The notes: a model not told the origin generated them from the letters alone. A stretch of 64,000 bases of DNA from a virus (IMGVR_UViG_2775507102_000001:274-64273), one strand, 5' to 3'; shown: positions 16,942 through 42,592, numbered from the stretch's first letter. A program made the numbers and translations.

Positions 16942-17270
16942 CAGTCACCGCCCGAGGCGGCTGCGGCCCGCAGCAGCACGTGATGGGCCGGGACCCGCTC
17001 GGTGCCGTACTCCACCCAGCGGGCGTAGTAGGTCGGATTGCGCACGTAGGCGACGGCCCGGTCACGGCGACGGCCACCGCGCTTCGTGCTCGACACCTCC
17101 CATGCCCCCTTGTACTGACCAGGGTGGGGATCCCGAGCGGAGCCGACCGGGGACAGGGTCACGGCAGTGGCCTTGATGTCCTCCGCCCGGCGCACCAGTT
17201 CACCACGGATCATCTCCGACCGCAGCAGCTGGCCCACGCCCTTGCGCTTCATCTTGAATCGCGCAGCCAT
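16941..17270 (-). CDS. HK97 gp10-like neck protein
   Basis: YARWVEYGT motif; synteny. Confidence 0.8.
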   Translation of the reverse strand: MAARFKMKRKGVGQLLRSEMIRGELVRRAEDIKATAVTLSPVGSARDPHPGQYKGAWEVSSTKRGGRRRDRAVAYVRNPTYYARWVEYGTERVPAHHVLLRAAAASGGD

Positions 17271-17278
17271 GACGCCTC

Positions 17279-18058: not shown

Positions 18059-18067
18059 AGCGACCTC

Positions 18068-20049: not shown

Positions 20050-20064
20050 CGGGGGCTACCTTTC

Positions 20065-20661
20065 TCAGTGGCCCCGTGCGAGGCCCTGGGTCATGAAGTC
20101 GGCGAACACAGCCGCCGGATCGTTGGGGGTTCGGTTGCCGTTGCCCGAAGAGCCCTGCGTGCGGTCTGCCTTCGGCGCCCGCGGCGAGGTGTCGGCCGGC
20201 TTGGCGAGGTGCGGCTTGCGCTTCAGCAAGTCCTTCAGGTCCTGCCGGATGGCTGCCGTGTCGACGTCGCCGTCGTCGTCCACATAGGAGGTGAGGTCGA
20301 GGAACGCGTGCGCGTCCTCCGGGTCGGCGAACTCCGCCGCCGCCAGGGCCTTCACCTCGGACCGGACCGCGCGCTGCCGGAACTGCTGGATACGTTGCTC
20401 GGCAGAGGTGAGCTGCTCGGTGAGCCGCTCCTGCTCCGACTTGTTCGCGTCCTCCAGCTCCTGCGCCTTCTGTGCGAGAGGCTTGGCCTCCTGGTACTTC
20501 GTGCGCCAGCCAGCGGACTCCTTGCGGAGTTTCTCGATCTCCTTGCGGGCCTTGGCGGGGTCCGCCCACGGATCCGCCGGGTCCTGCTCCGCCTCCGGGG
20601 CGGCCTCGGACTGCTGCGGCTCCGTCTCGACCTGCTCGGCCGTCTCCTCGTTCTCGGGCAT
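20065..20661 (-). CDS. Capsid scaffolding protein
   Basis: 198 aa acidic coiled coil; LRKESAGWRTK, AEFADPEDA. Confidence 0.85.
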   Translation of the reverse strand: MPENEETAEQVETEPQQSEAAPEAEQDPADPWADPAKARKEIEKLRKESAGWRTKYQEAKPLAQKAQELEDANKSEQERLTEQLTSAEQRIQQFRQRAVRSEVKALAAAEFADPEDAHAFLDLTSYVDDDGDVDTAAIRQDLKDLLKRKPHLAKPADTSPRAPKADRTQGSSGNGNRTPNDPAAVFADFMTQGLARGH

Positions 20662-20721
20662 GGCTAGTTGGCCCTCCAGGGGCTGAGAAAGGCCGCCACC
20701 AGGGCAGCCGAAGGGGGTTGG

Positions 20722-21495
20722 TCAGTTGGAGCCCGGCAGCGGGTTGCTGTCGTGCTCGGCGAGCGCCCGCCTGAACAGGCGCAGCTGGTCACCGGAGTGG
20801 CCCTGCGCGAACTCGCGGTAGATGCGCTCCCACTCACGGGCGTGCTGAGACAGCTCGAACCGCTGCCCCTTGAATACCGGGACCACGCCGCAGTGACAGC
20901 CGTCGTGCGCCCGGAAATCTGCTGTTTCCTGTTCGTACACCGCGCCACGCGAGGCGAGCATCTTGCAGAAAGCGCACGCCCCGCGAGCCGCCGATCGCGC
21001 CCACGCGGTGGCCTGCCGGTCCTGCCGCACCGCCTCCCGGACAGTGCCGCGACCCGTATCAACCACCAACTTCTGCGCGACCTGCTCGGCCTTCTTCTCC
21101 GCCTGCGTAAGGCGGACATCCATCGGCTGCAGCTGGGCCGGCGTCGCCTCCTCCGGGTCCCGCGGCCACAAATCCTTCGTCGCCCACCGCAGCGAGGCCT
21201 CCGTCTGCTCCGGCGGAGGCGGATCCGCGACCGGCACCGTGAACGACCCTGGCACGCCGGCCGCTTCCCGCTGCGCATCGTAGAAGTCCGCCGCCAAAGC
21301 AGCCGAGGTCCGCGCGTACTGGGCGATGACCGTGTTCATCGCCGTCAGCCAGTCCGGGACGCTCTCCCGCAGCCGCGACGGCAGGATCAGCCGCCGCAGA
21401 CCGCGTACATCCCGCACAAGAAGCATCGTCAGCCCAACCTGCGCCGCCCGATAGCGGCGAGCCTCATCGCCGTTATCCGAGACCGTCGTCGCCAC
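20722..21495 (-). CDS. Minor capsid / head maturation protein (MuF-like)
   Basis: 257 aa; WARSAARGACAFCKMLASRGAVY...HDGCHC. Confidence 0.75.
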   Translation of the reverse strand: MATTVSDNGDEARRYRAAQVGLTMLLVRDVRGLRRLILPSRLRESVPDWLTAMNTVIAQYARTSAALAADFYDAQREAAGVPGSFTVPVADPPPPEQTEASLRWATKDLWPRDPEEATPAQLQPMDVRLTQAEKKAEQVAQKLVVDTGRGTVREAVRQDRQATAWARSAARGACAFCKMLASRGAVYEQETADFRAHDGCHCGVVPVFKGQRFELSQHAREWERIYREFAQGHSGDQLRLFRRALAEHDSNPLPGSN

Positions 21496-22903
21496 CAGTC
21501 ACCTCTGCTGCGGCGGGCGGCTCGTCACCCTCGCTCATCGCGGCGAGCCGGTCCATGAGCTGGCGGCTGGCGGCCGTGTTGGCGCTACGGCGACGCTCGG
21601 CGGCTACCCGGCGGCGCTGATCCTCGCTCAGCCCGGCCATCTCCAATACGACATCACCGTCAGCCGGCAGGATGCCCGCATGAACGAGCTTCACCGCGGC
21701 GTCGGCCTGGGCCGCCACCGTCGGCGTTGCCGGGTTGCGCCACACGCACTCGATGCGGCGCGACTTATCCGGCGGCTCCCCATCGCGGAACCACAGCGCC
21801 AGCCTCATCGCGTCCCGGTGCGTCGCCGAGAAGCGGCGGATGCGCCGCTCCGCCTTCTTGATCTGCCCGTTGTCGGCAAAGCGGATCGCGTCAGCGCTCG
21901 CCGGGTTGTCGCTGGTGTAGCCGAGAACGTGAGGGGCCACCGACAACTGCGACGCCATGATGCGGGCGTAGAGGTCGATGATTTTCGTCTGGCCGGACGG
22001 ATCGTGGGCGGCGAACTGCCCCACCGTGGGCACTTCCCCGTTCTCGTCCCGCTCCAGCGCCAACACTCGGCCGATGTACGTCTCCCAGGCCGACTTGGCG
22101 TTGCCCTCCGCGTCCTGGAAGGCGCTCTCCGACACCCCCAGGATGTAGCGCTGCGGCGCCTGGAAGAACTCGGCGCCGACCTCGATACCCATCAGCCGCC
22201 GGCAAGCCGCATCCGTGATCGACATGACCTCAGGCGTGATCTCCGACTTACCGATGCGGTCCGCGGTGCGCTGCCGGTTCGCCATCCGCAGCACCGGCAC
22301 CATGCCCAGGTTGTGGATGTCCCGGTCGAAGACCTCCCAGCCGCCATCCACCTCGGCCGCGTACACCGTCTGATCCGGCAGATACAGGGTCGCGATACGC
22401 ACCCCGTCCTCGACCGACTCCCGCAGAGCAGCCGTCGCCAGACGCAGCCGGGCATCCCAGAACATCGTCATGTCCAGCGGCGACTCGAACGTGATCAGTG
22501 GTGGATCGCCCGCCTCGCCCGAGCCGACCGACACGTACTCGCGGCCGTAGGTCAGGGCGTCCAAGTGGGCCAACGACGCTTCGTCGTACAGGTCGTTCGA
22601 CTCGGCGATCTCCTCCAGATCGGACGGGTCCGTTCCGTCCGCCCAGCGGAACGCCTCCAGGTCGAGGCGCTGCTCCAGCGACTCGACACCGATGCGCGGC
22701 CAGCCGATCACCGTGTGCAGGCCCTTGAGCTGCGGCGGAATCGAGATCCCGAGGTCGCGAACGAGTTGCTCGCCGTTGAAATAGGCGTCGAGCAGCTCCA
22801 GCTTGAACCGCTGCGACAGCAGGTCCGAGCGCAGCGCCGTCAGCAGTTGCGCCTCGTCGCCCGACAGCGACAGGAGCGGCAGCTCGGGGATGGTCGCAGT
22901 CAT
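21473..22903 (-). CDS. Portal protein
   Basis: ATG 22903 overlaps terminase stop; 476 aa; VIGWPRIGVESLEQRL, GMVPVLRMANR, WRNPATPT. Confidence 0.9.
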   Translation of the reverse strand: MTATIPELPLLSLSGDEAQLLTALRSDLLSQRFKLELLDAYFNGEQLVRDLGISIPPQLKGLHTVIGWPRIGVESLEQRLDLEAFRWADGTDPSDLEEIAESNDLYDEASLAHLDALTYGREYVSVGSGEAGDPPLITFESPLDMTMFWDARLRLATAALRESVEDGVRIATLYLPDQTVYAAEVDGGWEVFDRDIHNLGMVPVLRMANRQRTADRIGKSEITPEVMSITDAACRRLMGIEVGAEFFQAPQRYILGVSESAFQDAEGNAKSAWETYIGRVLALERDENGEVPTVGQFAAHDPSGQTKIIDLYARIMASQLSVAPHVLGYTSDNPASADAIRFADNGQIKKAERRIRRFSATHRDAMRLALWFRDGEPPDKSRRIECVWRNPATPTVAAQADAAVKLVHAGILPADGDVVLEMAGLSEDQRRRVAAERRRSANTAASRQLMDRLAAMSEGDEPPAAAEVTGGDDGLG

Positions 22904-24639
22904 CGAAGCACCACCACCCGTCCCTTGCCTGGCGTGCCGCGCTTCGCCCACGCCGTCGAGTTCAACATCATCCGGCGCAGCATCCGCGCCCCGATCGCAC
23001 ACACCGCCAGGTCGATCTTGCGGGCCGACTCGCGATGCTCCTTACCGACCGTGTAGCCCCACTGATTCGTGCGGCGCCGGGCATTCGCCACGTGCTGGCG
23101 CAGCATCCGATGCCCGTCATGGAACAGTTGCCGCTCCAGCACGTCCCGGTAGAAGCGGTCCACAGCTTCCGTGAACGCCTGCTGGCGGCGCCGGTCACGC
23201 ATGTCCCACAGCACCGCGTGCCGGTTCGCGCCGCCCGTCACCGCCTTCAGCTTCAGCTTCTTGCCGTAGCGCTGCGCCCACGCGTCGATGTAGCCGTCCC
23301 AGTAGCGTTCGCCGTCCGCGTCGTCGTGACCGGCGCCCGGGTCGGCGAAGAACGCGATCGGCCGGTAGTCCGCGAACACCTGGTCCACCGTCCCGTCGAC
23401 CTCCTCGCGCGGCACCCGCCACGGCACGTCCTGCGGCCAGTTCGCCGGCCGCTGCCACACGCCCAGCGCGGTGACGAAGCCGTCCGACATGCGGCAGGCC
23501 GCCAGGCCGGTCGCGTCGTCGCTCTTGGAGCCGTCGAAGAACAGGACGATCTCGTCGCCCGGCCGAAGACCCGCATCCTCGCGGCGACAGGCATCCCACT
23601 CATACGGCGCCAGGAAGGCGTCCTCCGCGGCGACGATCTGGTTGAACCAGAAGCGCCGGGACCGGCTGGGCGGATTGCGGACATCAAGGATCGACGCCTT
23701 CAGCCGCTCAATGTCCAGCCAGATCGAATCCCCGCGGACGGCCCGCAGAGTCGGGACGATCCACTCCTCGGTCAACTTCGCCTCGGCCGGAGCCTCCAGG
23801 CTGTCGTAGAACAGGCCCGTGTCCACCACCCGGCCGGCCTCAGCCGACTCGAACGCCTCCCGGGTGCGCTCGGCGACACTGTCCTCGCCGGGTTCGTAGG
23901 CGTTGGTGTTCGCCAAGGTCCTCGACTGGCCGTCCGCGCTCTTGGTGGCGTTGCGCTCGATCACGGCGGCCATTTCGTGGCCCTGGTTCGACTCCAGCCA
24001 GTGGTGCGTCTCCCCCAGATTGACGGCCGTCGGCCGCCCACCCTCCAAGGCCCTCGGAGACGAGGTGACCGCCTCGATGCGAGCCCGGCCCTTGTCGGCG
24101 TAGATGATCTCCTTGCCGAGGTCGATGCGGTACTCCTCGATCGCCCGCTTCGACAGGATCGACGGGAACAGCGTCATCGTGTTCCGCGTCTGATCCTGCG
24201 ACACCGCCGCGATCTGCACCCACGCCGCCGGATGCTGAACCCCCAGCGGTTGCCCCGCCGGAACGCCCCACTCGTTACCCTCGTCGGCGACCTGGCCGAA
24301 GCGGCACGGGCCGACAAACTCGAACGCCGACCAGGTAGCGATCAGGGGGTCTTTGCCCCAGCCCTTCAGCCGCTGGATCACGCCATCCCGCCACAGGAAC
24401 CGGTTCGTCACAGGATCCATCGCGTACCACCACAGCGTCAGCCGAGCCTGCTCGGCGGTATACCGCCAGGGCGCCCCGACGTAGTGCTGCAGGTACGTCG
24501 CCGTCCACGCCAGACAGTGCCAGCCCAGCGTGTACTCGGGCAGGATGAACCGCCCGTCCGGGCCACGCTTCCACGTCGGCCCGATTGTGAACGGCTCGAC
24601 GACCTCCGGAACAGCCTCGTCAGCCACCTGCGAGGTCAC
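22900..24639 (-). CDS. terL: Terminase large subunit
   Basis: 579 aa; QRLKGWGKD (Walker A-like), QIAAVSQDQT, ETHHW, FDGSKSDDAT, KIDLAVC. Confidence 0.93.
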   Translation of the reverse strand: MTSQVADEAVPEVVEPFTIGPTWKRGPDGRFILPEYTLGWHCLAWTATYLQHYVGAPWRYTAEQARLTLWWYAMDPVTNRFLWRDGVIQRLKGWGKDPLIATWSAFEFVGPCRFGQVADEGNEWGVPAGQPLGVQHPAAWVQIAAVSQDQTRNTMTLFPSILSKRAIEEYRIDLGKEIIYADKGRARIEAVTSSPRALEGGRPTAVNLGETHHWLESNQGHEMAAVIERNATKSADGQSRTLANTNAYEPGEDSVAERTREAFESAEAGRVVDTGLFYDSLEAPAEAKLTEEWIVPTLRAVRGDSIWLDIERLKASILDVRNPPSRSRRFWFNQIVAAEDAFLAPYEWDACRREDAGLRPGDEIVLFFDGSKSDDATGLAACRMSDGFVTALGVWQRPANWPQDVPWRVPREEVDGTVDQVFADYRPIAFFADPGAGHDDADGERYWDGYIDAWAQRYGKKLKLKAVTGGANRHAVLWDMRDRRRQQAFTEAVDRFYRDVLERQLFHDGHRMLRQHVANARRRTNQWGYTVGKEHRESARKIDLAVCAIGARMLRRMMLNSTAWAKRGTPGKGRVVVLR

Positions 24640-25054
24640 GGTATGCGTCCAGCGGCTTCACCGACGCCAGCTGCGGCCCGGCTGGCTTCCGCTCCAGCTC
24701 GATCCGCGCCCGACGCCGGTCCCCCTCGGTCGTCAGAAGGCGGGCCATGACGCTGTCCAGCGCGCTGACGTACTGACCGTTTGGCGGCCGGTCCGACGAC
24801 AGGCCGCGCGACATCAGCTCCGCGGCGTACCGAGCCATCGCCCAGTCCGACGGCTGATAGAAGACGGCCTGACCGGACTCCTGCAGAGACAGATACCAGT
24901 CCGTGGCGATCGGATGCCACAGCGGATCCGGGTCCGGCAGATCCGGCAGATCCAGCGGCGGCCCAGACGGGGCTTGCGCCAGCTTCGGCCCGTCGTCCTT
25001 GTTGCGACGACGACGCGCTTCCGAGCGCTCCGGTATGGGTCCACGAGTGCCCAT
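24620..25054 (-). CDS. terS: Terminase small subunit
   Basis: MGTRGPIPERSEARRRRNK...PPLDLPD.....WHPIATDWY...LLTTEGDRRRARIE. Confidence 0.85.
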   Translation of the reverse strand: MGTRGPIPERSEARRRRNKDDGPKLAQAPSGPPLDLPDLPDPDPLWHPIATDWYLSLQESGQAVFYQPSDWAMARYAAELMSRGLSSDRPPNGQYVSALDSVMARLLTTEGDRRRARIELERKPAGPQLASVKPLDAYRDLAGG

Positions 25055-25139
25055 GACGACCTCCAGGGTCAGGCACGCCACCAGGGCGCGCGGGGCAGAT
25101 GCCTTGCGCCGGCCGCGCCAGCCACCCGGGCAGGCGCAG

Positions 25140-32701: not shown

Positions 32702-32926
32702 TCAGGCGGCCTTGGGTCGGCCCGGCTTCACCTTGGCTGCGGCCTCGATGGTCGGCAGGTGATAGAGCGGCTGGTCACCGTCGAGCGGAACTCGCTCGAT
32801 CTTGCCGCGGGTTTCCCAGACGCGGATCGTGCCGGGCTTCACGCCGGCCACTCGGGCGGCTTCCCAGATGTCGCCGAGGTCGCGCTGATACAGCTCGTAC
32901 AGCGCAGGGTTGGAGAAGGTCGGCAC
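32702..32926 (-). CDS. MerR-like HTH DNA-binding protein
   Basis: GGAGG RBS before GTG 32926; IWEAARVAGVKPGTIRVWETRGKI; 74 aa. Confidence 0.8.
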   Translation of the reverse strand: MPTFSNPALYELYQRDLGDIWEAARVAGVKPGTIRVWETRGKIERVPLDGDQPLYHLPTIEAAAKVKPGRPKAA

Positions 32927-32946
32927 GGCACCTCCCCGGAATGCGC

Positions 32947-32976
32947 AAACCCCCGCCGGATAGCTCACGGCGGGGG
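32947..32976 (-). terminator. Intrinsic terminator in leader of late operon
   Basis: 9-bp stem CCCCCGCCG-N9-CGGCGGGGG then TTT on minus strand. Confidence 0.65.
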
Positions 32977-33018
32977 CTCTGGGTGCTCTTGCGACGGGTG
33001 TTCCACCATCGACTTCGG

Positions 33019-33047
33019 AGATTACAGATTCAGCGATCAACTAGCAA
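33019..33047 (-). promoter_or_regulatory. Housekeeping-sigma-type promoter heading the late operon
   Basis: TTGCTA (33047-33042) - N17 - TAATCT (33024-33019). Confidence 0.65.
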
Positions 33048-33356: not shown

Positions 33357-33605
33357 CTAGACCTCCTGAGTTGTGAGGGTACGGACGTGTACGGGTATCG
33401 CCACTCCGCAGTGCTGCATCGCCCCTTCGAGCGCGGCCTGCGCCCCACTGTCCCGCCACGCCGCGGCAACATCGGCCCGGGCGAAGGTGAGCCGCAGCGT
33501 GCCGCCAACGACGGTGGGGGTGGCGTGGGCGAGGAGCATGCCCGCCGCCTGACGACGCAGAGACGTCGCGGCCAGCACCTGCGGCCACCAGATGGGTTCG
33601 GTCAT
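33357..33605 (-). CDS. Hypothetical protein
   Basis: 82 aa, operon spacing. Confidence 0.6.
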   Translation of the reverse strand: MTEPIWWPQVLAATSLRRQAAGMLLAHATPTVVGGTLRLTFARADVAAAWRDSGAQAALEGAMQHCGVAIPVHVRTLTTQEV

Positions 33606-33805
33606 GACGCAGCCTTCTCGCGGATGGCGTCGACGAGTCCCAGGTCATCGACTTCGATGACGGTCCCGCAGGTGCGGCAGGTGTATGTGCGGTCGCCGTA
33701 CCTGTCCGTGCCCTCGTCTTTCATTTCCTCGCCGTGGCAGTCGGGTACGCCGTCCTCGATCTCCATGCCGAGGACCAGCTCCATGCCGTAGATCGTCGGT
33801 TCCAT
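33602..33805 (-). CDS. Small acidic Zn-ribbon protein
   Basis: 67 aa; DCHGEEM...YTCRTCG; AAGGAG RBS. Confidence 0.7.
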   Translation of the reverse strand: MEPTIYGMELVLGMEIEDGVPDCHGEEMKDEGTDRYGDRTYTCRTCGTVIEVDDLGLVDAIREKAAS

Positions 33806-33816
33806 TGCGGTCTCCT

Positions 33817-34284
33817 TCACTGCTGATTGTTGGTTTTGGCCCACAGGCCGGTGGTCTTCGTCTGGACGGTGCGCTGGTCGACGTGGCCGGTGTAGTGCTG
33901 GTGGATCTCGGCGGGGGCGGCCTGGCCGGCTCGGCGCAGGAGCCGGGCCAGGGCGAGGATCGGCACGGCGATCGCGGCTGGCGCGGCGCAGATCATGCCA
34001 ATGACGGTCGGGTTGGCGTGCTCAGAGGCGACCATCACGGCGACCGCGATCAGGCCCGGGGGCACGGTGGCGAGGCTGCAGAACATGACGGCCCGGGCGG
34101 TCTCGGTGGTGCGCTGCGACATCGGCGGGATGCCGGGCTGCGGTACGGGCGGGGCGTCTCCGTACCGCGGGAGCGGGGTCTGGTCACGGTAGGAGGTGGC
34201 GAAGTCGGCGATGATCTGGCGCGCCTGCGCTTCAGCCTCGGCGTCGGTCATTCCGGTGCGGGTCGGGTCGGTCTTGGCGGACAT
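33817..34284 (-). CDS. Two-TM membrane protein, Spd (spread)-like
   Basis: 155 aa; two hydrophobic segments; downstream of traB. Confidence 0.7.
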   Translation of the reverse strand: MSAKTDPTRTGMTDAEAEAQARQIIADFATSYRDQTPLPRYGDAPPVPQPGIPPMSQRTTETARAVMFCSLATVPPGLIAVAVMVASEHANPTVIGMICAAPAAIAVPILALARLLRRAGQAAPAEIHQHYTGHVDQRTVQTKTTGLWAKTNNQQ

Positions 34285-34410
34285 GGCGGGCTCCTGCGGG
34301 GTGATCGTTCCGGGTGGTCTGGGGGCTGTTCGGGCCGTCCTGGCCCTCGTCCGGGCCTGTGTTTGTGCTGGTCAGGGTTCGGCGGTGGCCCGTCTGCAGG
34401 GTCGAGGGGC

Positions 34411-34505
34411 CCGTCCCGGCCGGACGGAGTCGCGACGGCCGGGACGGGGGCTGGACGGGGTTCATACCGGGTCAAACCAGGTCAGTGGACGGGGGTTGGA
34501 CGGGG
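34411..34505. repeat. clt-like locus: 8-bp direct repeats GGACGGGG (CCCCGTCC on minus)
   Basis: Exact copies at 34442, 34453, 34487, 34498 (two pairs at 11-bp spacing), 1-mismatch copy at 34422; 11-bp inverted repeat 34411-34421/34437-34447; ends 2 nt from traB stop. Confidence 0.75.
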
Positions 34506-34506
34506 C

Positions 34507-36609
34507 TCACAGGCCGATGTCGTAGCGGTCGAGGACCGCCCGGCGCACCGCGGTGAGCGGGTAGACGGACACCTTGCTGCCGCTGACTTCCTGCCGCCGC
34601 TTCTCCTCGTCGGTGCGCGGCACGAGCACGGCCAGCCGGTCGGCAGTCACCGGATGGCCGGCTGCGGCAAGCCCTTCGGTGACCCGGGCAGTGGGCAGCA
34701 TCTCGACGCCTTCCGGGTACAGGCCGAACAGGGTGGCGAGGATCTCGCCGTCCTCACCTGCGGCGCGCAGCCGGTCAAGCGGGCCCAGCGGCAGCGTCCC
34801 GGCCTCCTGTCGCAGCGAGTAGGCGCGGCCCAGGATTGCGGCGACCTCGTCGTCGTCGTAGTAGTCGCCGCGGACCAGCTCCGGCTCGGCGCCTTCGCCG
34901 TCCATGTAGATGCCCACGCCGCGCTGCGACTTGAGGATGTCCTGGGCGTTGTGCCCGGCGGAGGCGTAGCCCTGTCCGAGGATCGTGTCGGAGGCCTGCG
35001 GGGTGAGGCAGCGCATCGCCCAGCGGATGGAGAGGATGTCGCGGATCCCGGTGGGTACGGAATCGCTGTCGGGCTTCTGTGTGGCGGCGAGGCTGATGAT
35101 GCCGAGCGCCCGGCCCTGCTGGACGATCAGCCGCAGCAGCCGTTCCATCTCCTGCCGTGTCTTCTGGTCGGCGGCGGCACCGTAGGACGACCACTCGTCG
35201 ACGAGGAGAACGGCCAAGCAGACCCGCGGGTCGACGGCGGCCATCGCCTCGGTCAGCTTGCGGGAGCCGTGCTCCTTGGCGAGCGCCCGCCGCTCCTTGA
35301 TCTCGACGTCCCACATGTACTGCAGGATGTCGAGGAGCTTGTCGGGGTCGCCGTCGGTGTCGTACATGGTGGCGATCGGCTCGAACGGGGTGATGTCGGC
35401 GCCGGCCTTGCCGTCGGCGAGGTACATGCGCACGGTCGGGTCGAGCGCGGCGGCGAGCAGCAGGTCGTTGGCTGCGGCGGACTTGCCGGAGCCGGGCTCG
35501 CCACCGAAGAGTCCGGACCGCTCGACCCACGAGGTGATGACTTCCTCGCCGCGCAGGTTGACGCCCATCCGGATGGGCTGCCACAGGTTGACCCGCTCGG
35601 CGTCGAGCAGCGGGCCCCGGGTCGGCTTGGTGGAGAACGGCAGCTTCAGCGACACCCGCAGGTGGATGGTGTCTTCGCGGTCGCCGCGGGTCTGGTGGAC
35701 CTGCTGCACGGACACGCCGAAGCCGTTGGCGATGCCCTCGCGCGCTCCGAGCGCCTTCTTAGCGGGGGTGCCAGACGGCAGCTGGAACACGACCTGCCAG
35801 GCCTTGCCGTCGGCGGTGAGCGTGCAGGGGGTGCTGAGGCGCAGGGTGTCGTCGGCGGCGATGACGCGGGCGTCGCGGTACACCCGGTTGACCATGTCGT
35901 CGGTCATCCGGTCCCCGTCGCCGATCTTCGCGTCGCGGTCGGTGTACAGCTCCCCCGCCGTGGTGCGCCGCCCGATCAGGGCGAACGTGGCCAGGGTTGC
36001 GGCCGTGGCGGCGAGCCCGCCGGGGGTGCCGAGCAGTTGCAGGCTCGCTCCTTCAACTCCGGCGATCGGAGTGAGGGCAGCAACGCCCCGCACGGCCCGC
36101 CGCATGCGGGCGTCCCGCTGCGCCGACCGGTACTTGCTCATCGCCGACGCCGAGTCGGCGAACGCGCCCTCCATCTCCCGGCGCCGCTTCTCCTTCTCCT
36201 TGCCGGGCATCAGCCGCCGGTCGTGCGCCCACTTCGCAGCCTTGTAATCGCGCTGCGTCTGCTGCACCTCGTACCGGGCGGCGAGGACCTGCGCGCCCTC
36301 GGTGCCCTGCACCCACAGGACGGTGCGGCGGATCCCGCGACCGATCTGCGAGGCGTGCCCGTGCTCTGTGGCCTGCCGACGCAGCCACTTGCGGAAGCCG
36401 CGGACGGTGTTGACGCGGCCGACCTCGGCGCGGCTCTTCCACCCGGTGCGGGTCTTCGTCCAGGCGGGGGTGAGGGGGGTGTCGCCCATCAGGTCGACGG
36501 ACGTCGTCTGCTTCTCGACGGGCGCCTCGCCGGGGGCGTTCAGGTAGCCGCCGACGATGCGCTCCCACTCCGGGTCGGGGGTGCTGCTGGGGGTCGTCTC
36601 GATGCTCAC
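34507..36609 (-). CDS. traB: TraB-like FtsK/SpoIIIE conjugative DNA translocase
   Basis: 700 aa; N-terminal TM region, Walker A GEPGSGKS, Walker B LLVDEW, GRALGI...ATQKP, C-terminal wHTH-sized domain. Confidence 0.88.
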   Translation of the reverse strand: MSIETTPSSTPDPEWERIVGGYLNAPGEAPVEKQTTSVDLMGDTPLTPAWTKTRTGWKSRAEVGRVNTVRGFRKWLRRQATEHGHASQIGRGIRRTVLWVQGTEGAQVLAARYEVQQTQRDYKAAKWAHDRRLMPGKEKEKRRREMEGAFADSASAMSKYRSAQRDARMRRAVRGVAALTPIAGVEGASLQLLGTPGGLAATAATLATFALIGRRTTAGELYTDRDAKIGDGDRMTDDMVNRVYRDARVIAADDTLRLSTPCTLTADGKAWQVVFQLPSGTPAKKALGAREGIANGFGVSVQQVHQTRGDREDTIHLRVSLKLPFSTKPTRGPLLDAERVNLWQPIRMGVNLRGEEVITSWVERSGLFGGEPGSGKSAAANDLLLAAALDPTVRMYLADGKAGADITPFEPIATMYDTDGDPDKLLDILQYMWDVEIKERRALAKEHGSRKLTEAMAAVDPRVCLAVLLVDEWSSYGAAADQKTRQEMERLLRLIVQQGRALGIISLAATQKPDSDSVPTGIRDILSIRWAMRCLTPQASDTILGQGYASAGHNAQDILKSQRGVGIYMDGEGAEPELVRGDYYDDDEVAAILGRAYSLRQEAGTLPLGPLDRLRAAGEDGEILATLFGLYPEGVEMLPTARVTEGLAAAGHPVTADRLAVLVPRTDEEKRRQEVSGSKVSVYPLTAVRRAVLDRYDIGL

Positions 36610-37850
36610 TGCGACTCCTTCTTCGCGGCGGTCTGCTTGGCGGTGATGGCGGCCTGACGACGGGCGGCGGGGGCGTACTTCACGTCACCCTTGGTGCGCT
36701 TTCCGCGGCGGGCGGGAGGGTTGTAGACGCGGGGCTTCTTCGCGCCGGGCACTTGCGATGCGACCTGCTGCGATGATCCGTTCACGGAGCGCTTCTGCCG
36801 GGCGGCTTCGACCCTCGCTTCGGCGGCGTTGCGCAGTCGGATAATCTCCGCGGACTCCGACGGGTCGGCACCCTCCACGTCTCGGTGCGCGCGCTTCCAG
36901 ACCGCCTCGGTGACGGTCGTCTCGCCGAGCGCTGCGGCGAGCCGCAGTGCGTGCTGCCACACCTTCGGGAACTCCTTGGCGCGGGCCTGCGCGAGCTTCT
37001 CCGCGGCCTCGGCCGCGGCACGCTCGGCGGCCTCCTTGTCGGCAGCCCGTCGCTTCTCCTCCGCGGCCTGGCGGGCGGCCTCGGCTCGCTCGGCTTTCGC
37101 CTGGGCCTTGCGCTGCTTGCGGGTGAGCGCGCCGTCGCGCTTGCGGATCTGCCCGTGCTCGTGGAGGTCATACACGCCGGGACCGGCGATGGACGCGAAC
37201 GCGGTGCCGATCGCGGTGGCCGGGTCGAAGGCGTGCAGCCCGTGCCACAGGTTGATCGCTGCCGCGATGAAGGCCAGCACCCAAGCGATTAGCCGGTAGT
37301 GCCAGTGCGGGCGACGGTCGACTGCCGCAGCCCGGGCGCCCTTGAGGACGACCCACGCACCGCCTTCGAGCATGATCGGCGCGGCCATCAGCCACAGGGC
37401 GTTCGGGTTGTAGAACGCGGCAATCTGCACGGGCAGAGCGACGATTGAGCAGACGGCGTAGAAGCGCAGCGCGTACTGGCGCCACTGCTCCTCGGCGGCA
37501 GCGACCTCTGCGGCCTTCGCGGCTTCGGCCTTCTCCTCGGCGGCAGCCTTCTCCTCGGCCTCCCGGGCGGCGCGCTCCTCCTCGTCGCGCTCCCGGTTGA
37601 GCTTGGCGATGCGGGCCGCGCGGGCGGCCTGCTCCTCAAGGGCCCGGGCCTCGGCCTTGTCGTTGGCGATCCTCTGCTTGCGGGCTTCCTCAGCGGCCTT
37701 GATCTTCTCGGCCTCAGCCTCACCTTCGGCCTTGATGCGGGCGGCTTCTGCTTCGGCGGCGGCGCGGGTCCGGATCGCCTCCGCCTCGGCCAGCGCGACC
37801 GGGTCAAAGCGGTCCTGGCCGTTGACCATTTCGAACGACGTGGCGGTCAC
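36606..37850 (-). CDS. Coiled-coil multi-TM transfer/spread protein (SpdB2/DUF2637-like)
   Basis: 414 aa; Ala/Glu coiled coil, about 4 TM segments, second coiled coil; stop overlaps traB start. Confidence 0.75.
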   Translation of the reverse strand: MTATSFEMVNGQDRFDPVALAEAEAIRTRAAAEAEAARIKAEGEAEAEKIKAAEEARKQRIANDKAEARALEEQAARAARIAKLNRERDEEERAAREAEEKAAAEEKAEAAKAAEVAAAEEQWRQYALRFYAVCSIVALPVQIAAFYNPNALWLMAAPIMLEGGAWVVLKGARAAAVDRRPHWHYRLIAWVLAFIAAAINLWHGLHAFDPATAIGTAFASIAGPGVYDLHEHGQIRKRDGALTRKQRKAQAKAERAEAARQAAEEKRRAADKEAAERAAAEAAEKLAQARAKEFPKVWQHALRLAAALGETTVTEAVWKRAHRDVEGADPSESAEIIRLRNAAEARVEAARQKRSVNGSSQQVASQVPGAKKPRVYNPPARRGKRTKGDVKYAPAARRQAAITAKQTAAKKESQ

Positions 37851-37871
37851 GGGTATCAGTCCCTTCGGATC

Positions 37872-38078
37872 TCAGGCGGTGGCGGTCTTGACGGGGGCGG
37901 GCCGGTGCTTCAGCCAGGCGGCGACGGCGGCGAGCAACAGCACCGGCCCGGGGATCGCGGCGAGGACGACGTTCGCGCCGGTAGCGGCCCAGTCGATCGG
38001 GGCGGCAGCCGGCGGCCACAAGCCGACGACGATCAGGAACGCTGCGAGCAGCAGCCAGACGAAGACACGACGGAACAT
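37872..38078 (-). CDS. Small two-TM protein, Spd-like
   Basis: 68 aa hydrophobic. Confidence 0.7.
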   Translation of the reverse strand: MFRRVFVWLLLAAFLIVVGLWPPAAAPIDWAATGANVVLAAIPGPVLLLAAVAAWLKHRPAPVKTATA

Positions 38079-38132
38079 GACGACCTCTTTGGTCGGAACG
38101 GACGGGGAGGGTGACGCTGCGCCAGTTCTCCA

Positions 38133-38428
38133 GGGCCCACGTGCGAGACGCGGGCCGCGGGCAGCCGGTCAGCTGAGGCGCTCGACCTTGACGTCGAGGT
38201 CGCGCGGGTCGGTCTTCGCGGCCTTCACGCGGCGGTCGAGGTCCGCCTGGCTGTAGACGGTCACCGAGTCGGTGGAACCGCCCAGCGGGTTGACCTTCTG
38301 GCCGGTGCGGCTGGTCGCGGTGAGCTTGAACTTCGGCACGGAGTCGTCCTCTCGGGTAGATGGCGGAACGCTGAGCGGTTCCCCTCGACCGGGCCCGTGC
38401 GAGACGGGCCCGGCGGGCAGCCGGTCAG
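38133..38428 (-). repeat. Two copies of a post-stop stem-loop element flanking a 56-aa ORF
   Basis: Identical GCGGGCAGCCGGTCAG (38157-38172, 38413-38428) and GTGCGAGACG (38141-38150, 38397-38406). Confidence 0.75.
38169..38339 (-). CDS. Small hypothetical protein (56 aa, not in ORF track)
   Basis: MPKFKLTATSRTGQKVNPLGGSTDSVTVYSQADLDRRVKAAKTDPRDLDVKVERLS; GAGGA RBS. Confidence 0.7.
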   Translation of the reverse strand: MPKFKLTATSRTGQKVNPLGGSTDSVTVYSQADLDRRVKAAKTDPRDLDVKVERLS

Positions 38429-38598
38429 TCCTCGTACAGGGCTCGGGCTCGCCGCCAGATCGGCTGCTCGCGCAACTTGCGGTCGAGTTCGGCGTTGACG
38501 GCCTGGGCTTCCTGCGAGTCGCAGCCGTTCTTGCCGTCGGGGTCCGGTCGGGCGGCCATCAGCCGCTTGATCTCGGCACGGTCCTGCTTCCAGCCCAT
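38425..38598 (-). CDS. Small hypothetical protein (57 aa, not in ORF track)
   Basis: MGWKQDRAEIKRLMAARPDPDGKNGCDSQEAQAVNAELDRKLREQPIWRRARALYED; AGGAG RBS. Confidence 0.7.
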   Translation of the reverse strand: MGWKQDRAEIKRLMAARPDPDGKNGCDSQEAQAVNAELDRKLREQPIWRRARALYED

Positions 38599-38676
38599 GA
38601 CGGGCTCCTCTCGGGTTGAGTCGGTCGGGGTGCCGGGCGCGGCAAGGGGATGGACCGCGCCCGGCGGATCAGGGGG

Positions 38677-38859
38677 TCAGCGGCAGCCGTTCTTGGCGTG
38701 GTCCTCGCACGGCGGGCACGGCTCGTTGTCCTTGCCGAGGCCGAGCCAGTTGCCCTTGTGCAGCTCCGCGTGCTCCTCGCACTGCGCGCAGCGGCCCTCA
38801 GGCACGAGGACTCCCCTCGGGTAGGCCGGCCGCCCGGCAGATGTCAGCCGGGGACGCAC
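38677..38859 (-). CDS. Small Cys/His Zn-binding protein (pRL2-8-like plasmid family); start uncertain
   Basis: CAQCEEHA...CPPCEDHAKNGC. Confidence 0.6.
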   Translation of the reverse strand: MRPRLTSAGRPAYPRGVLVPEGRCAQCEEHAELHKGNWLGLGKDNEPCPPCEDHAKNGCR

Positions 38860-39004
38860 CCGCCTGCTGCGCCTCGACAGCGAGCTTCAGCGCCCGGCCA
38901 GCGGCCAGATGGGTCACCTCGTGCGTCTCGCCGAATACGCTCGCCGCCCGGTAGGTGTCGACAGTCGCCTCACCCGCAGCCCGGGCCAGCTCCTCGCCGG
39001 CCAT
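38798..39004 (-). CDS. Hypothetical protein
   Basis: 68 aa, coupled to upstream stop. Confidence 0.55.
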   Translation of the reverse strand: MAGEELARAAGEATVDTYRAASVFGETHEVTHLAAGRALKLAVEAQQAGASPADICRAAGLPEGSPRA

Positions 39005-39249
39005 CAGGCGGCAGCCGGGTAGTTGTCGAAGCCGTCCAACTCGGCCAGCAGCTCTGGGTCGATGGCGTAGGCGTGGTCGCGGATCAGGCTCATCTGGTCG
39101 AAGCGGCCGGCCGCCCGGGCGTCAGCGAACTCGACGATCAGGGACGCGGCGTGGTCGGCCATGGCATCGGCGACCGTGATCGTCTTACGGCGGAGGGCGC
39201 CCAGGTCGGTCGTGGCGGCAAGGTCGGCGTCGGACAGGTACGGAGACAT
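39004..39249 (-). CDS. Hypothetical protein
   Basis: 81 aa, AAAGGG RBS. Confidence 0.7.
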   Translation of the reverse strand: MSPYLSDADLAATTDLGALRRKTITVADAMADHAASLIVEFADARAAGRFDQMSLIRDHAYAIDPELLAELDGFDNYPAAA

Positions 39250-39347
39250 GGCGGAATAGCCCTTTCGGGTGCAGGTATGGGTGGGGTGGGAAGCCGCGGT
39301 GGCGGGACGGGGGCGAACACCGCCACCGCGGCGGTATGGGGTGGGCG

Positions 39348-39563
39348 TCAGCCCTGAGGGTGCCGCGCCTCTTCCTCGCGCAGCTTCCGGCGCAGGTAGT
39401 CGGCGTTCCAGGCGAGACGACCCCGGTCCTCGGCAAGCGCCTCACGGGCGACGACGCGGGCGAGGCTGGCACGGCGAAGGATCCGCTGGTCGTAGTCGTC
39501 GCTGCCGTGAGGCAGCGTCAAGGCCTCCACGACCGCCTCCAGCAGGTCCCGCTCGGCGGTCAC
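39348..39563 (-). CDS. Hypothetical protein
   Basis: 71 aa, overlapping start/stop. Confidence 0.7.
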   Translation of the reverse strand: MTAERDLLEAVVEALTLPHGSDDYDQRILRRASLARVVAREALAEDRGRLAWNADYLRRKLREEEARHPQG

Positions 39564-39730
39564 GACCTCTCACCGCGCTCCGCCACGACAATGAACCGGT
39601 CGTTCTTCGGGTCCATGCGGACCGTGGCCGGAGTACCCGACCGGGTCAGCTCAGCCGCACGCTCCTCCGCCGGCCACGAGCCACGCGGGTGACCCGCCGG
39701 GAAGTGGTCGAGAACCTCACGGGCGCTCAC
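39560..39730 (-). CDS. Small hypothetical protein of plasmid/AICE-type transfer regions
   Basis: MSAREVLDHFPAGHPRGSWPAEERAAELTRSG...; 56 aa. Confidence 0.7.
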   Translation of the reverse strand: MSAREVLDHFPAGHPRGSWPAEERAAELTRSGTPATVRMDPKNDRFIVVAERGERS

Positions 39731-40230
39731 CGGGACACCTTCTCGATGGCAGCGCGACGCATGTCCAGGCCCGGCTGGCCGAGCAGAGTGGTGACCCGGC
39801 CATGCAGCGAAGCGATGTGGTACATCCACTCAAGCGCGTCCGCCCGATCGACCGCGTCCACCATGGCGAGGGCCCGGCCCGTACCGTCGAGGCTCGTCAC
39901 AACCAACAGCACGTCGCCGTCAGGGGAGACCTCCGACACGAAGTCGACGATGACCTCGATGTGGGCGAAGTGCCCCATGCGGTCGGCAAGCATCTCGCCG
40001 CCGGCCGTGGGGATGAGGCCGTTCGCGCCGACGTTGCGCAGGTACCTCTCGCGGGAGCTCCACGAGATGTGCGTGGCTGCCTCGTGAGCGAGGCGATCAG
40101 CGAGCGACAGGTTGCGGTCAGTCATCGCACGCTCGTAACCGTGCAGCGCCACAGCGGCGGCCGGCGGAAGCGGGGCGGTGCCCGCGTGGTCGGTGCGCTC
40201 GTGCGCACCGGTCTCGACTGCTGTGCTCAT
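39727..40230 (-). CDS. Hypothetical protein
   Basis: 167 aa, coupled both ends. Confidence 0.65.
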   Translation of the reverse strand: MSTAVETGAHERTDHAGTAPLPPAAAVALHGYERAMTDRNLSLADRLAHEAATHISWSSRERYLRNVGANGLIPTAGGEMLADRMGHFAHIEVIVDFVSEVSPDGDVLLVVTSLDGTGRALAMVDAVDRADALEWMYHIASLHGRVTTLLGQPGLDMRRAAIEKVSR

Positions 40231-40916
40231 CAGCGTGCCTTCTTCCTGGCTTCGTGGCGACTTTGAGAGGCGGCCCGGCAGGCACGGCAGTGCTTGTAGC
40301 CCTTCGGGTCTGTGTAGGTGTTCTGGGAGTCGAGGACATGACCCTTGGCGCAGACCTCCGAGCCACGACGGCGACGCGGCGCGGGTGGGCTGGAGAGGGC
40401 AATGGGCGCCTCGTTGAGAGGCGTGTTGGTGGCAGTTGCGTACCGCTGACGTGCCGACGTGATGGCGCAGGTACGGCAGCGGCGGCCACCGTCTTCGCGC
40501 ACTTCAAGGTTGTCGCCAGAGAGCGGGTGACCCCGCTTGCAGTGGGTCTTGTCCGCGTTGACCGCAGCAGGCGCAATCGGCGAGCGCATGATGTTCTCGT
40601 GGCAGGTGACGGCCTGAAGGTGCTGCGGGTTGCAGCACTCACGAACCCGGCACAGGTGGTCGAGGTGTGCGCCCTGAGGGATCTCGCCAATGAAGATCAT
40701 GTACATGATGCGGTGGGCGTACATGGCCTTCTGGTTGAGGTCAAAGGCTCCATAGCCAGCCTTGAACCGTCGGCCGGTCCAGATCCAGCAGCCGCTCTCG
40801 CTCTGCGTGACACGGGGCCAGAGCCTGTCGAGCTCCGGCTGGGTGAGCTGGCGGCTCAGGCCAGACGGCAACGTGACCGGCTTCAAGCTGTGGAGGTCGG
40901 GCTTTGCGGTCTTCAC
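40230..40916 (-). CDS. HNH homing-endonuclease-like protein with two C-terminal Cys/His modules
   Basis: GCWIWTG...GYG...AHR...LDHLCRVRECCNPQHL; THCKRGH..RRCRTC and VCAKGH..KHCRAC. Confidence 0.88.
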   Translation of the reverse strand: MKTAKPDLHSLKPVTLPSGLSRQLTQPELDRLWPRVTQSESGCWIWTGRRFKAGYGAFDLNQKAMYAHRIMYMIFIGEIPQGAHLDHLCRVRECCNPQHLQAVTCHENIMRSPIAPAAVNADKTHCKRGHPLSGDNLEVREDGGRRCRTCAITSARQRYATATNTPLNEAPIALSSPPAPRRRRGSEVCAKGHVLDSQNTYTDPKGYKHCRACRAASQSRHEARKKAR

Positions 40917-41138
40917 CTAGGCCACCTCACCCGGGACCTGCGCGGTGCGCAGGAACTCGGAAAGCGTGGATTCGGCGATTCGGAAGCGGGGGCGCCCGAC
41001 TCCCTTGGCGATGTTGATCGCGGACAGCCGTCCTGAGGTGATGAGGCTGCGCACATGCTGGGGCGTACTGCCGATGCGCTTCGCCACCTGTCCGGTGGTC
41101 AGGTAGTCGCCCGTGGGGGCGACAGATGCAGACGTCAC
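40917..41138 (-). CDS. Excisionase-like HTH DNA-binding protein
   Basis: GTG 41138 with GGGGAG RBS; YLTTGQVAKRIGSTPQHVRSLITSGRL. Confidence 0.8.
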   Translation of the reverse strand: MTSASVAPTGDYLTTGQVAKRIGSTPQHVRSLITSGRLSAINIAKGVGRPRFRIAESTLSEFLRTAQVPGEVA

Positions 41139-41189
41139 TAGGTGCTCCCCTGCGGTCGACTGGGGTGGACACCTAGATAGAAGCAGATC

Positions 41190-41217
41190 GCTCCAGAGCA
41201 ATCAATAGCTCTAGAGC
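41190..41217. promoter_or_regulatory. Palindromic operator(s) upstream of transfer operon
   Basis: GCTCTAGAGC (41208-41217) and 1-mismatch GCTCCAGAGC (41190-41199). Confidence 0.65.
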
Positions 41218-41240
41218 AGATGGAGCACATCTAAGACAAC

Positions 41241-41269
41241 AAAAAAGCCCCCACCCGATGGGTGGGGGC
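41241..41269 (-). terminator. Intrinsic terminator of GntR gene
   Basis: 10-bp stem GCCCCCACCC / GGGTGGGGGC followed by T6 on minus strand. Confidence 0.85.
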
Positions 41270-41284
41270 CGACGAAGTGGCAGG

Positions 41285-42040
41285 TCAGGCGGGGAAGTCG
41301 TACACCAGTAGGAACCTGGAAGCGTCCAGAATCATTCGGTTGATCTCGACGACACGACCATCTGCACGCATCGCAGAGCGGTGCTGCTCTACAACGGGCG
41401 CGCCGGCCGCCAGGTGCAGGTCATCCACTTCCGCCGGGGTAGCCAGTCGACACCGCAGCTGCTCACGGAACTGCACCGGCCCGTGCCCCGCTTCGCGGAG
41501 TCGCGCATAGGTTCCACCCGGGCCGGAGTCGATCTGTGTGATGCGCGTGCCGCGCGCGAGGTCGTCCGGGATGTACGAGGTCGCGCGCATGACGACTTCC
41601 CCTTCGACGACGTAGCGCCGATTCCGCCGCCACACCGGCTCGCCCTCTTCCAGATCGAGGGCGCGGGCCACTTCCGCCGGGGCGTCGATCAGTTCAATCT
41701 GCACGTCACGTGCCTCAAGCTGACGGTCATCGATGTCGACGTCCCACATCGATCGCCCTTCGCCCCACTGAGCGGTCGAGAGCCGCTTGAGGGCGTTACG
41801 AACGATGGGCCGCCATTCGGCGACGTACCAGCCGGAGCCGACGCGCGACTCGATCAGGCCCTCGTCGCGCAGCACGCCAAGGGCCTGGCGAACGGTCATC
41901 TGCGAGACGTCGTAGAGCGCGCGCAGATCCCGCTCGGAGGGCAACTTTCGCTTCTCGCCGAACTCGCCGGCATTGATCCGCCTACGCAGGTCGTCGGCGA
42001 TCTCCCGGTACTTGTGCGGCTCGCCGGGCTTGCGTGGCAC
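41285..42040 (-). CDS. GntR-family repressor with UTRA domain (KorSA/TraR-like)
   Basis: 251 aa; YREIADDLRRRI..G.....KLPSERDL...VSQMTVRQAL..L..EGLI; C-terminal UTRA-like fold. Confidence 0.9.
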   Translation of the reverse strand: MPRKPGEPHKYREIADDLRRRINAGEFGEKRKLPSERDLRALYDVSQMTVRQALGVLRDEGLIESRVGSGWYVAEWRPIVRNALKRLSTAQWGEGRSMWDVDIDDRQLEARDVQIELIDAPAEVARALDLEEGEPVWRRNRRYVVEGEVVMRATSYIPDDLARGTRITQIDSGPGGTYARLREAGHGPVQFREQLRCRLATPAEVDDLHLAAGAPVVEQHRSAMRADGRVVEINRMILDASRFLLVYDFPA

Positions 42041-42062
42041 AGGCTCTCCTTAGGGACGGATT

Positions 42063-42164
42063 CATCTAGAGCAACGCTACCTGCTCTACATCAGCGCTGG
42101 TCAATGCGCACCTTTGGCAGATCCCGGCGAGAGACTGGCGCCAATTGCTCTAGAGCGCTACGTT
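42063..42164. promoter_or_regulatory. Divergent promoter region with the same operator
   Basis: GCTCTAGAGC (42147-42156), TCTAGAGC (42065-42072); -10-like TAGCGT (-, 42079-42074) and TACGTT (+, 42159-42164). Confidence 0.6.
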
Positions 42165-42316
42165 GGCGTAGCCGCGTTGTGACAGTGCGCACACCGCAGC
42201 GGGGCCTCGCACGCCCACACACGAAAACGGCCGGACGGTCGCCACCGTCCGGCCGAAGAAACGGCGGGTCGCCACCCGCCGACAGCAACTCAATCCTGCT
42301 GAGATGGAGTCTGCCC

Positions 42317-42592
42317 ATGACTGTAGCGCCTGCTATCGCCACCGACCACCTGCTCGACACCCCGCTCCCCCAGCTCCTCGCCGAGCTGGACGTGGACCTG
42401 GTCGACTCCAGCATCACCGACCGGGGCTTCTTCGGCGCCTTGGTGGAGCGCCGTGACGGCTCGCGGGTCCTGTCGATGCCGCCCGGCCGGAGCGCCTTCG
42501 AGCGGGACACCGCGGCCCGGATGCTCCTCGCGGAGGGGCTGGACCTGGACTCCCCGCCGGTGCCGGCGCCGCTGGCGGTGTCGCGCGTCTGA
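42317..42592 (+). CDS. Hypothetical protein divergent from GntR (91 aa)
   Basis: MTVAPAIATDHLLDTPLPQLLAEL...GFFGALVE; ATGGAG RBS. Confidence 0.75.
   Translation: MTVAPAIATDHLLDTPLPQLLAELDVDLVDSSITDRGFFGALVERRDGSRVLSMPPGRSAFERDTAARMLLAEGLDLDSPPVPAPLAVSRV

Follow-up and report, generated by a model that had tools for sequence, protein, structure and literature searches.

We examined a stretch of 64,000 nucleotides (IMGVR_UViG_2775507102_000001:274-64273; hereafter the window), which corresponds to G000:C38:64357-128356 in an 8.79-Mb Streptomyces-type genome of about 70% G+C, and we focused on a cassette of conjugation genes carried there by an integrated temperate phage. Nearly all the genes of the window were found on the minus strand, with gene calling based on G+C content at third codon positions. 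The cassette spans 33.8-42.6 kb on that strand, between the early and the late genes of the phage, and comprises a TraB-type DNA translocase, a homologue of the plasmid spread protein SpdB2, a GntR-type repressor with operators, and a repeat array resembling clt, the cis-acting site of plasmid transfer. All its genes were intact. From high to low coordinates, the features of the cassette and its edges were the following:

42317..42592, plus strand: open reading frame (ORF) of 91 amino acids (aa), divergent from the GntR gene, with no family and no Pfam match
42063..42156, unstranded: promoter/operator region of the GntR gene, with a perfect palindrome GCTCTAGAGC at 42147-42156
41285..42040, minus strand: TraR/KorA-like repressor with a GntR helix-turn-helix (HTH) and a UTRA domain (PF00392, E 9e-22; PF07702, E 2.5e-23)
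41246..41270, minus strand: terminator-like hairpin and T-run after the GntR gene
41190..41217, unstranded: operators ahead of the transfer operon, a perfect GCTCTAGAGC at 41208 and GCTCCAGAGC at 41190
40917..41201, minus strand: excisionase-family HTH_17 gene, first of the operon (PF12728, 28.5 bits, cut-off 27)
40230..40916, minus strand: HNH_3 endonuclease gene (PF13392, E 7.8e-12)
38169..40230, minus strand: run of small ORFs (56-167 aa) without family assignment
37872..38078, minus strand: small Spd-like protein of 68 aa with two hydrophobic segments
36606..37850, minus strand: SpdB2 homologue of 414 aa with three hydrophobic segments, overlapping the traB start by 4 nt
34507..36609, minus strand: TraB, FtsK/SpoIIIE-type double-stranded DNA translocase of 700 aa (PF01580)
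34411..34505, unstranded: clt-like array, four copies of CCCCGTCC (gene strand) in two pairs 11 bp apart, along with copies that are degenerate or inverted
33817..34284, minus strand: protein of 155 aa encoded downstream of the clt-like array, with two hydrophobic segments (phrog_19266, E 1.6e-37)
33357..33844, minus strand: two small ORFs, one of 80 aa with Cys pairs like those of a Zn ribbon and one of 82 aa

The large ATPase gene was confirmed to encode a motor of the FtsK/SpoIIIE type. The PF01580 profile (FtsK_SpoIIIE) scored 33.5 bits against a cut-off of 24, a Walker A motif (GEPGSGKS) and an LLVDE motif were present, and the protein matched the phrog_1358 family with an E value of 1.9e-118. 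A profile built from TraB and eight homologues also matched the FtsK motor 2IUU (E 2e-19). The AlphaFold (AF2) model was confident in the motor region (residues 230-610; predicted local distance difference test score, pLDDT, 80-92), and it was aligned by Foldseek to the DNA-bound FtsK structure 6T8B with a template modelling score of 0.67, while it superposed also on the coupling protein TcpA. Regarding plasmid relatives, identity to the TraB of pSVH1 (NC_007431.1) was 44.7% over 82% of the query, the alignment to pSVH1-type TraB extended to residue 698, and the TraBs of small Streptomyces plasmids were 38-45% identical over most of the length. The NF041214 model (plasmid_TraB; the pWTY27/pJV1/pCQ4 lineage) scored 21.2 bits versus an equivalog cut-off of 800; judged by its sequence, the window TraB is a member of the pSVH1 lineage and not of the NF041214 lineage. 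In the TraB tree, the window protein and that of a prophage in genome G059 formed the sister group of the pSVH1/pSTS2 plasmid clade (Shimodaira-Hasegawa-like approximate likelihood ratio test, 96), with the branch of G286, G045 and G273 next. Phage-borne TraBs were paraphyletic in this tree, and exchange of TraB with plasmids has therefore occurred.

Three membrane proteins had been noted beside the ATPase, and these are the 414-aa, 68-aa and 155-aa proteins, with three, two and two hydrophobic segments, respectively. The 414-aa protein had no match in Pfam or NCBIfam, and its homology was seen only by pairwise BLASTP to pSVH1 SpdB2 (32% identity over 214 aa, E 4e-14). The 155-aa protein has a 61% identical homologue at the corresponding place in G059; the pSVH1 ORF in the matching position was also considered as a homologue and rejected as unrelated. 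The description of the small ORFs as plasmid-type genes held in part: the run of ORFs is there, but those at 38169-39563 gave no family matches and their plasmid-type nature was not supported. The HNH_3 gene appears as variable cargo, since it was not found at the corresponding place in G059 or G286.

The repressor showed 29% identity to the pSVH1 GntR protein over its full length (E 1e-21) and matched phrog_10724 (E 8e-53). The palindrome GCTCTAGAGC occurs in its perfect form in two places only within the 64 kb, at 41208 ahead of the HTH gene and at 42147 ahead of the GntR gene itself, and two copies with two mismatches (42063-42072 and 42083-42092) flank a promoter-like pair, TTGACC...TAGCGT. 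From this arrangement, the TraR-like GntR protein probably binds the GCTCTAGAGC operators and keeps both the operon and itself off, and the two perfect palindromes, together with the terminators, would insulate the cassette as a unit. The initial annotation had predicted both a GntR-UTRA repressor with its own operators and an Xis-like HTH gene, and both predictions agree with the Pfam matches and the palindromes found. The HTH_17 protein scored 24.9 bits against TIGR01764, below the cut-off of 28.8, and the real start of its gene is likely the GTG at 41138, behind a GGGGAG ribosome-binding site. The divergent 91-aa ORF (42317-42592, plus strand) has the operator-bearing gap in common with the GntR gene and is a possible regulatory partner; the strand of tblastn matches in its range, in relatives and in uncultivated viral genomes, was ambiguous.

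The clt-like array begins 2 nt past the traB stop. Across the window, CCCCGTCC was not enriched (9 copies versus 9.1 expected), but 4 out of the 9 copies fell within 64 bp, and the array was the sole place in the 64-kb window where any 8-mer occurred at least 4 times in 200 nt. An 8-mer repeated at least 3 times in the 200 nt after the TraB stop was found in 8 out of 10 prophages, against a background in which 2.75% of sequence windows reached at least 3 copies and 0.31% reached at least 4. The repeat type varied between elements and tracked the subtype of the last 95 TraB residues, which define at least five specificity groups. The elements, given here by their handles, were distributed as follows:

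C-terminal subtype of the window, L053, L054 and L056: repeat CCCCGTCC
C-terminal subtype of G059, L055, L057, L063 and L066: repeat CACAGGG / CCCTGTG
C-terminal subtype of L059, L065, L067 and L068: repeat CCTGGACA
C-terminal subtype of G286, L070, L073 and L084: repeat ACCCTGCC
C-terminal subtype of L071, L072 and L075: repeat of the GCCCGTGA type
L074 and L076, with C-termini resembling those of pSVH1-type plasmid TraBs: repeat ACCCGGAC

The repeat of G024, CCGTGACG, has a CGTGA core in common with the GCCCGTGA group, a likeness of the repeat alone. The TraB of L055 is 96% identical to that of the window over residues 1-609, and both its C-terminus and its repeat are of another type. The C-terminal domain of pSVH1 TraB reads an array on its own element (Vogelmann 2011, in the summary given by PMC3583192), and covariation of TraB subtype and repeat is therefore expected if the C-terminal domain of each phage TraB likewise reads the array of its own element. 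This pattern argues that TraB and clt are working pairs under selection, and it suggests that the TraB C-terminus and clt have been exchanged together among phages.

The same covariation bears on a different use of the protein, in which TraB would be repurposed for exclusion of, or competition with, co-resident plasmids and AICEs (actinomycete integrative and conjugative elements), for a kil-type takeover of the host, or for mobilisation of the host chromosome from the integrated clt. In plasmids, traB acts as a kil gene and depends on its Kor repressor, a clt in integrated form would turn the chromosome into a substrate in cis, and the PHROGs database files the TraB family under 'moron, auxiliary metabolic gene and host takeover'. 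However, matching of C-terminal subtype and repeat on the same element points to recognition of the phage's own DNA, as does the swap, described below, for a non-orthologous TraB of the pWTY27/pCQ4 type that has its own repeats. We regard repurposing as improbable.

The whole element was delimited by exact 91-bp direct repeats at window positions -1670 and 65462 (G000:C38:62686 and 129818), 67,132 bp apart, and the genome holds two copies only of this repeat. A tyrosine integrase gene (432 aa, C38:128381-129679) lies just inside the right repeat and just outside the window, and the repeat itself is the 3' end of a gene for a 732-aa protein with a C39-like peptidase domain. The empty site was found in the close relative G017 (95-96% nucleotide identity), where left and right flank are joined directly, with an overlap of exactly the 91-bp repeat; the element is therefore a precise insertion. 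No tRNA genes were found in the 64-kb window, and there is therefore no tRNA attachment (att) site in it. The element carries the gene set of a temperate tailed phage (Caudoviricetes): terminase, portal, HK97-fold capsid, tail, lysis, integrase and att. The 67,132-bp element is an integrated temperate siphovirus prophage, as the initial annotation had anticipated in describing an apparently integrating phage. A Logan contig of run X2 contained the whole element as one contig of 67,101 bp, which corresponds to the interval enclosed by the att repeats with k-mer overlaps added. The contig had a depth of 95, compared with 47-104 for six other contigs of the run, which is at most a faint hint of extra copies and too weak to claim excision or extra copies. 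We also observed a second tyrosine recombinase (346 aa, PF00589; window 2102-3142, minus strand) 3.7 kb inside attL, after the lysis genes, accompanied by an HTH_3 repressor-like gene, several orphan ORFs and small genes at -1600 to 2100 (L009:8400-12100). This could be a second integrase, an Xer-like resolvase or a nested islet.

Another reading is that the element is defective as a prophage, or is a conjugative island of phage origin, and has lost virion production, so that TraB is its sole transfer route. Neither a megablast of the block nor a tblastn of TraB against 50,697 phage records gave a match, and the closest isolated phages in those records reached at most 50% identity in TerL; the lack of a close isolated phage counts in favour of this reading. 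Yet the genes for TerS, TerL, portal, capsid, tail, tape measure, lysin and integrase are intact, the 91-bp att repeats are exact, and near-identical genomes recur in several metagenome viral contigs; we consider a defective element quite improbable.

Related prophages, a search of which had been proposed, carried a TraB-type gene at the matching junction. We sampled 300 genomes from the genus for TraB relatives, and the two nearest TraBs (66% and 48%) both sit in prophages. The prophage in G286:C73 shares the head genes of the window (TerL 86%, portal 75% and capsid 75% identical) and has TraB at the matching junction of early and late genes. The prophage in G059:C19, in contrast, has a different head set (a PF04860 portal, an S78 protease and another capsid) and carries the closest cassette in the same order, with TraB at 62%, GntR at 65%, the HTH gene at 49% and the 155-aa protein as given above. 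The next-nearest TraBs (43-45%) were on contigs without an HK97-type capsid gene, which look like plasmids or AICEs. We then compared seven further TerL relatives with enough flanking DNA (TerL identity 63-87%): 5 of the 7 (G024, G045, G197, G270 and G273) have at this place a P-loop protein of 680-830 aa that chains to TraB by phmmer, and just upstream of it a match to the SpdB2-like protein. In G015 (L040:5924-7951, G015:C1; TerL 85%), a TraB of the other lineage occupies the place, 61% identical to the TraB of pCQ4 and 36.5% to TraA of pWTY27, and within the 200 nt downstream of it CTGACACC occurs six times; the repeat footprinted by pWTY27 TraA in its clt is TGACACC (PMC3583192). As read from these sequences, G015 is a case of non-orthologous TraB replacement at one locus.

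Relatives were also found in IMG/VR (78 loci, about 30 of which have a TraB at 40% identity or more). Five metagenome contigs among them (L053, L054, L057, L058 and L059) represent the same phage type, with TerL at 93-98% identity and a TraB at 74-96% in place. These comparisons indicate that the transfer cassette is a conserved component of the phage lineage. Separately, a soil-metagenome contig (run X4, 7163 bp) matched both flanks of window 34152-38999, with 5827 other letters in place of the 4846 bp that hold TraB and SpdB2, and this suggests a cassette replacement between conserved flanks. TraB-bearing 'plasmids' of 54-59 kb were considered as possible phage-plasmids, and the one examined was a dimer of an ordinary plasmid.

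The constancy of the junction is relevant to whether the block is a nested or decayed insertion of an AICE or plasmid, a passenger without function for the phage. Exchange with plasmids is evident from the TraB tree, in which the window and G059 proteins are sister to the plasmid clade and the phage TraBs are paraphyletic, and the block does contain an HNH gene and many orphan small ORFs. Against this, Pfam and NCBIfam scans of the block detected no integrase or Rep, and a search for att-like repeats bounding it found no pair, only weak similarities of ribosome-binding sites and start regions and two terminator hairpins; the precise insertion is that of the whole 67-kb element. The genes are intact, the position stays the same across many related prophages and viral contigs and in one prophage whose head genes are unrelated, and the arrays covary with the TraB C-terminus. 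The view that the block is not an autonomous AICE was therefore upheld, and insertion of a functionless passenger is largely refuted and essentially excluded, with very little probability left to it.

We propose that the phage has a working TraB-clt-Spd system of its own, under separate regulation, that acts on the circular phage DNA and would transfer it between hyphae, across cross-walls, or both; our rough probability for this reading is 0.55. The proposed mechanism would extend the anatomy, homology, integration and conservation observed above to DNA binding, regulation and transfer. The transfer operon would be derepressed, and TraB hexamers would then use their C-terminal domain to dock on the CCCCGTCC repeats carried by circular phage DNA, in its excised or replicating form. 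TraB would pump double-stranded DNA into a contacting hypha, and the Spd-type membrane proteins would carry it across septal cross-walls. In this way, the phage may spread as naked DNA between hyphae, needing neither capsids nor receptors.

Several observations weigh against this proposal. The initial annotation had given TraB N-terminal transmembrane segments, of which a moderately hydrophobic stretch stood (residues 172-213, Kyte-Doolittle maximum 1.26, in a low-confidence part of the AF2 model), while no clear transmembrane helix was found. The TraB C-terminal domain was modelled at pLDDT 40-50, and its helix-helix-helix-hairpin pattern belongs to that low-confidence model. Neither the block nor the element's larger ORFs yielded a plasmid-type Rep, and the replication genes are of phage type (DnaB helicase); therefore, establishment in a recipient would depend on the replication and integration genes of the phage. 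The TerL relative G116 has here a large protein that shows no sequence connection to TraB, and no repeat array follows it. The window GntR gene is co-oriented with the operon, while that of pSVH1 is divergent, and FtsK-like genes of actinophages have been reported without an assigned function or partner site (PMC3706429, PMC13587820). To these is added the PHROGs category mentioned above.

Alternatively, the cassette may serve as a TraB-clt-Spd pump within one mycelium and not for mating between strains; in infection, induction or the lysogenic state, it would bring phage DNA through the cross-walls to adjacent compartments or prespores. SpdB2 and the small membrane proteins, which in plasmids act in intramycelial spread, are kept next to TraB, the cassette lies between early and late genes in the direction of phage transcription, and chromosomal FtsK-type pumps act at septa. 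However, the cassette has a repressor, operators and terminators to itself, which suggests that it is controlled separately from the lytic cascade. Related plasmid cassettes do both jobs, so that the two readings are not exclusive, and we consider a purely intramycelial role unlikely, while still giving it some weight.

More broadly, integrating Streptomyces phages could be widespread 'conjugative phages' that move their own genome between hyphae by TraB-clt-Spd, without dependence on capsids or receptors, and exchange the C-terminus and clt as specificity units, which would prevent cross-mobilisation of co-resident elements; we hold this generalisation tentatively, at somewhat less than even odds. 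Should the cassette be functional, adsorption would not be the only factor to set the host range and spread of phages in Streptomyces. Mating could bring a prophage into strains that are resistant or lack the receptor, and within a compartmented mycelium the prophage could spread with no lysis. The boundary between phage, AICE and plasmid would be blurred, with relevance to horizontal gene flow in organisms that produce antibiotics. The TraB C-termini and arrays that have been swapped in nature offer a ready data set for decoding the recognition of DNA by TraB.

The genes on the two sides of the cassette agree with its placement, in the initial annotation, between early genes and a late operon, and early genes, cassette and late genes all share the minus strand. 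On the higher-coordinate (upstream) side we found a DnaB-type helicase, a C5-methylase fusion, a PD-(D/E)XK nuclease and methyltransferases. On the lower-coordinate (downstream) side there are first fibre-like genes (HylP-like, Gp80 and a CE4 deacetylase fusion), and after them TerS, TerL, an SPP1-type portal, VG15, capsid and tail genes, a tape measure of 1509 aa, an amidase and a tyrosine recombinase. Further features of the prophage in the window were the following:

62190..62537, minus strand: second HTH_17 (Xis-like) gene, near the integrase end (PF12728, E 4.1e-11)
32702..33040, minus strand: MerR-like HTH gene with an uncertain start, heading the fibre and late genes (phrog_2474; PF13411 weak)
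22900..25081, minus strand: TerS and TerL (PF25673, E 1.8e-42; TerL homologues 84-88% identical in related prophages)
10489..23002, minus strand: portal, head, head-tail, tail tube and tape-measure genes

The MerR-like gene, at which a hairpin was found (32947-32981), marks the lower edge of the cassette. We also observed that the fibre-like genes (27881-32638, minus strand) are placed before the terminase and not after the tape measure; their products are a HylP-like protein, Gp80 and a protein of 683 aa in which a collagen repeat is combined with a CE4 deacetylase domain, and this stretch is highly variable among otherwise close relatives. In the head module, a GT4-family glycosyltransferase gene (18068-19090, minus strand) directly follows the major capsid gene and is 73% conserved in the G286 prophage. 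Two HNH_3 endonuclease genes were found in the prophage, the one in the cassette (40230-40916) and another at 53665-54450 (minus strand), and both are variably present in relatives. Finally, the early region encodes a 444-aa protein with a match to the DnaJ-type CXXCXGXG zinc finger (45773-47107, minus strand) and a 904-aa fusion with a C5 cytosine methylase domain (50351-53065, minus strand).

Among known systems, the cassette is most like the transfer regions of the Streptomyces venezuelae plasmid pSVH1 (traR-spdB2-traB-clt) and of pSTS2-type plasmids, with homologous GntR (29%), SpdB2 (32% over 214 aa) and TraB (44.7%) proteins. The order SpdB2, TraB, 8-bp repeat array and small membrane proteins is common to the window, pSVH1, pSTS2 and one further plasmid, so that the identification as a pSVH1-type transfer cassette held in both homology and gene order. 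The pSVH1/pSTS2 type, however, consists of plasmids of 12-30 kb, whereas the window cassette sits on a 67-kb integrating tailed phage without a plasmid Rep; its operon includes an excisionase-type HTH gene and an HNH gene, unlike the pSVH1 transfer region, and its repeat, CCCCGTCC, differs from those of pSVH1-type plasmids. With AICEs of the pSAM2, SLP1 and pMEA300 type, the element has in common its integrated state, a tyrosine integrase, an Xis-like gene, a GntR (Kor) repressor, an FtsK-type Tra and Spd proteins. AICEs are about 9-24 kb in size, lack virion genes and carry a gene for RepSA, RepAM or Prim-Pol (PMC3218068, PMC2440964); the element, in contrast, is 67,132 bp long, with a complete set of virion and lysis genes and no such Rep. 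In actinobacteriophages, FtsK/SpoIIIE-like proteins (phrog_1358; Cluster J mycobacteriophages, Streptomyces phages Jaresh and AndoPrime) likewise combine an FtsK-type motor with a variable C-terminal DNA-binding part, but they were reported with neither a function nor a partner site (PMC3706429, PMC13587820), whereas the motor in the window is accompanied by SpdB2, a Kor-type repressor and a cognate repeat array.

The closest precedents are plasmid-phages. The pCQ4 record (NC_019307.1) has a GntR gene, a tra operon and then terminase, portal and capsid genes, a layout as in the window, and conjugal transfer of pZL12, which had been named as a partial precedent, is stated to need a tra gene together with two genes lying next to it (PMC3583192, citing Zhong 2010). 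ParA/ParB are mentioned for pZL12 and pSLE1 in PMC4487206, and no ParA-sized match was found among the scanned ORFs of the element. While pZL12 and pCQ4 are circular plasmids of 85-90 kb with TraBs of the NF041214 lineage (pWTY27/pJV1 type), the window element is integrated, with an integrase and att sites, and its TraB is of the pSVH1 lineage. Our literature search found no paper on TraB cassettes in integrated Streptomyces prophages and nothing on the biology of pCQ4. The claim of novelty, an integrating phage with this module, stands in that form, but the finding is less novel than had been thought: the GntR-tra-terminase layout is already known in the plasmid-phages pZL12 and pCQ4, transfer of pZL12 has been published, PHROGs already holds TraB, the 155-aa protein and GntR as viral families, and dozens of IMG/VR contigs carry relatives. 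What sets this element apart is an integrating phage, with integrase and att and without partition genes, that carries a cassette of the pSVH1 lineage, and the apparent exchange of the TraB C-terminus together with clt.

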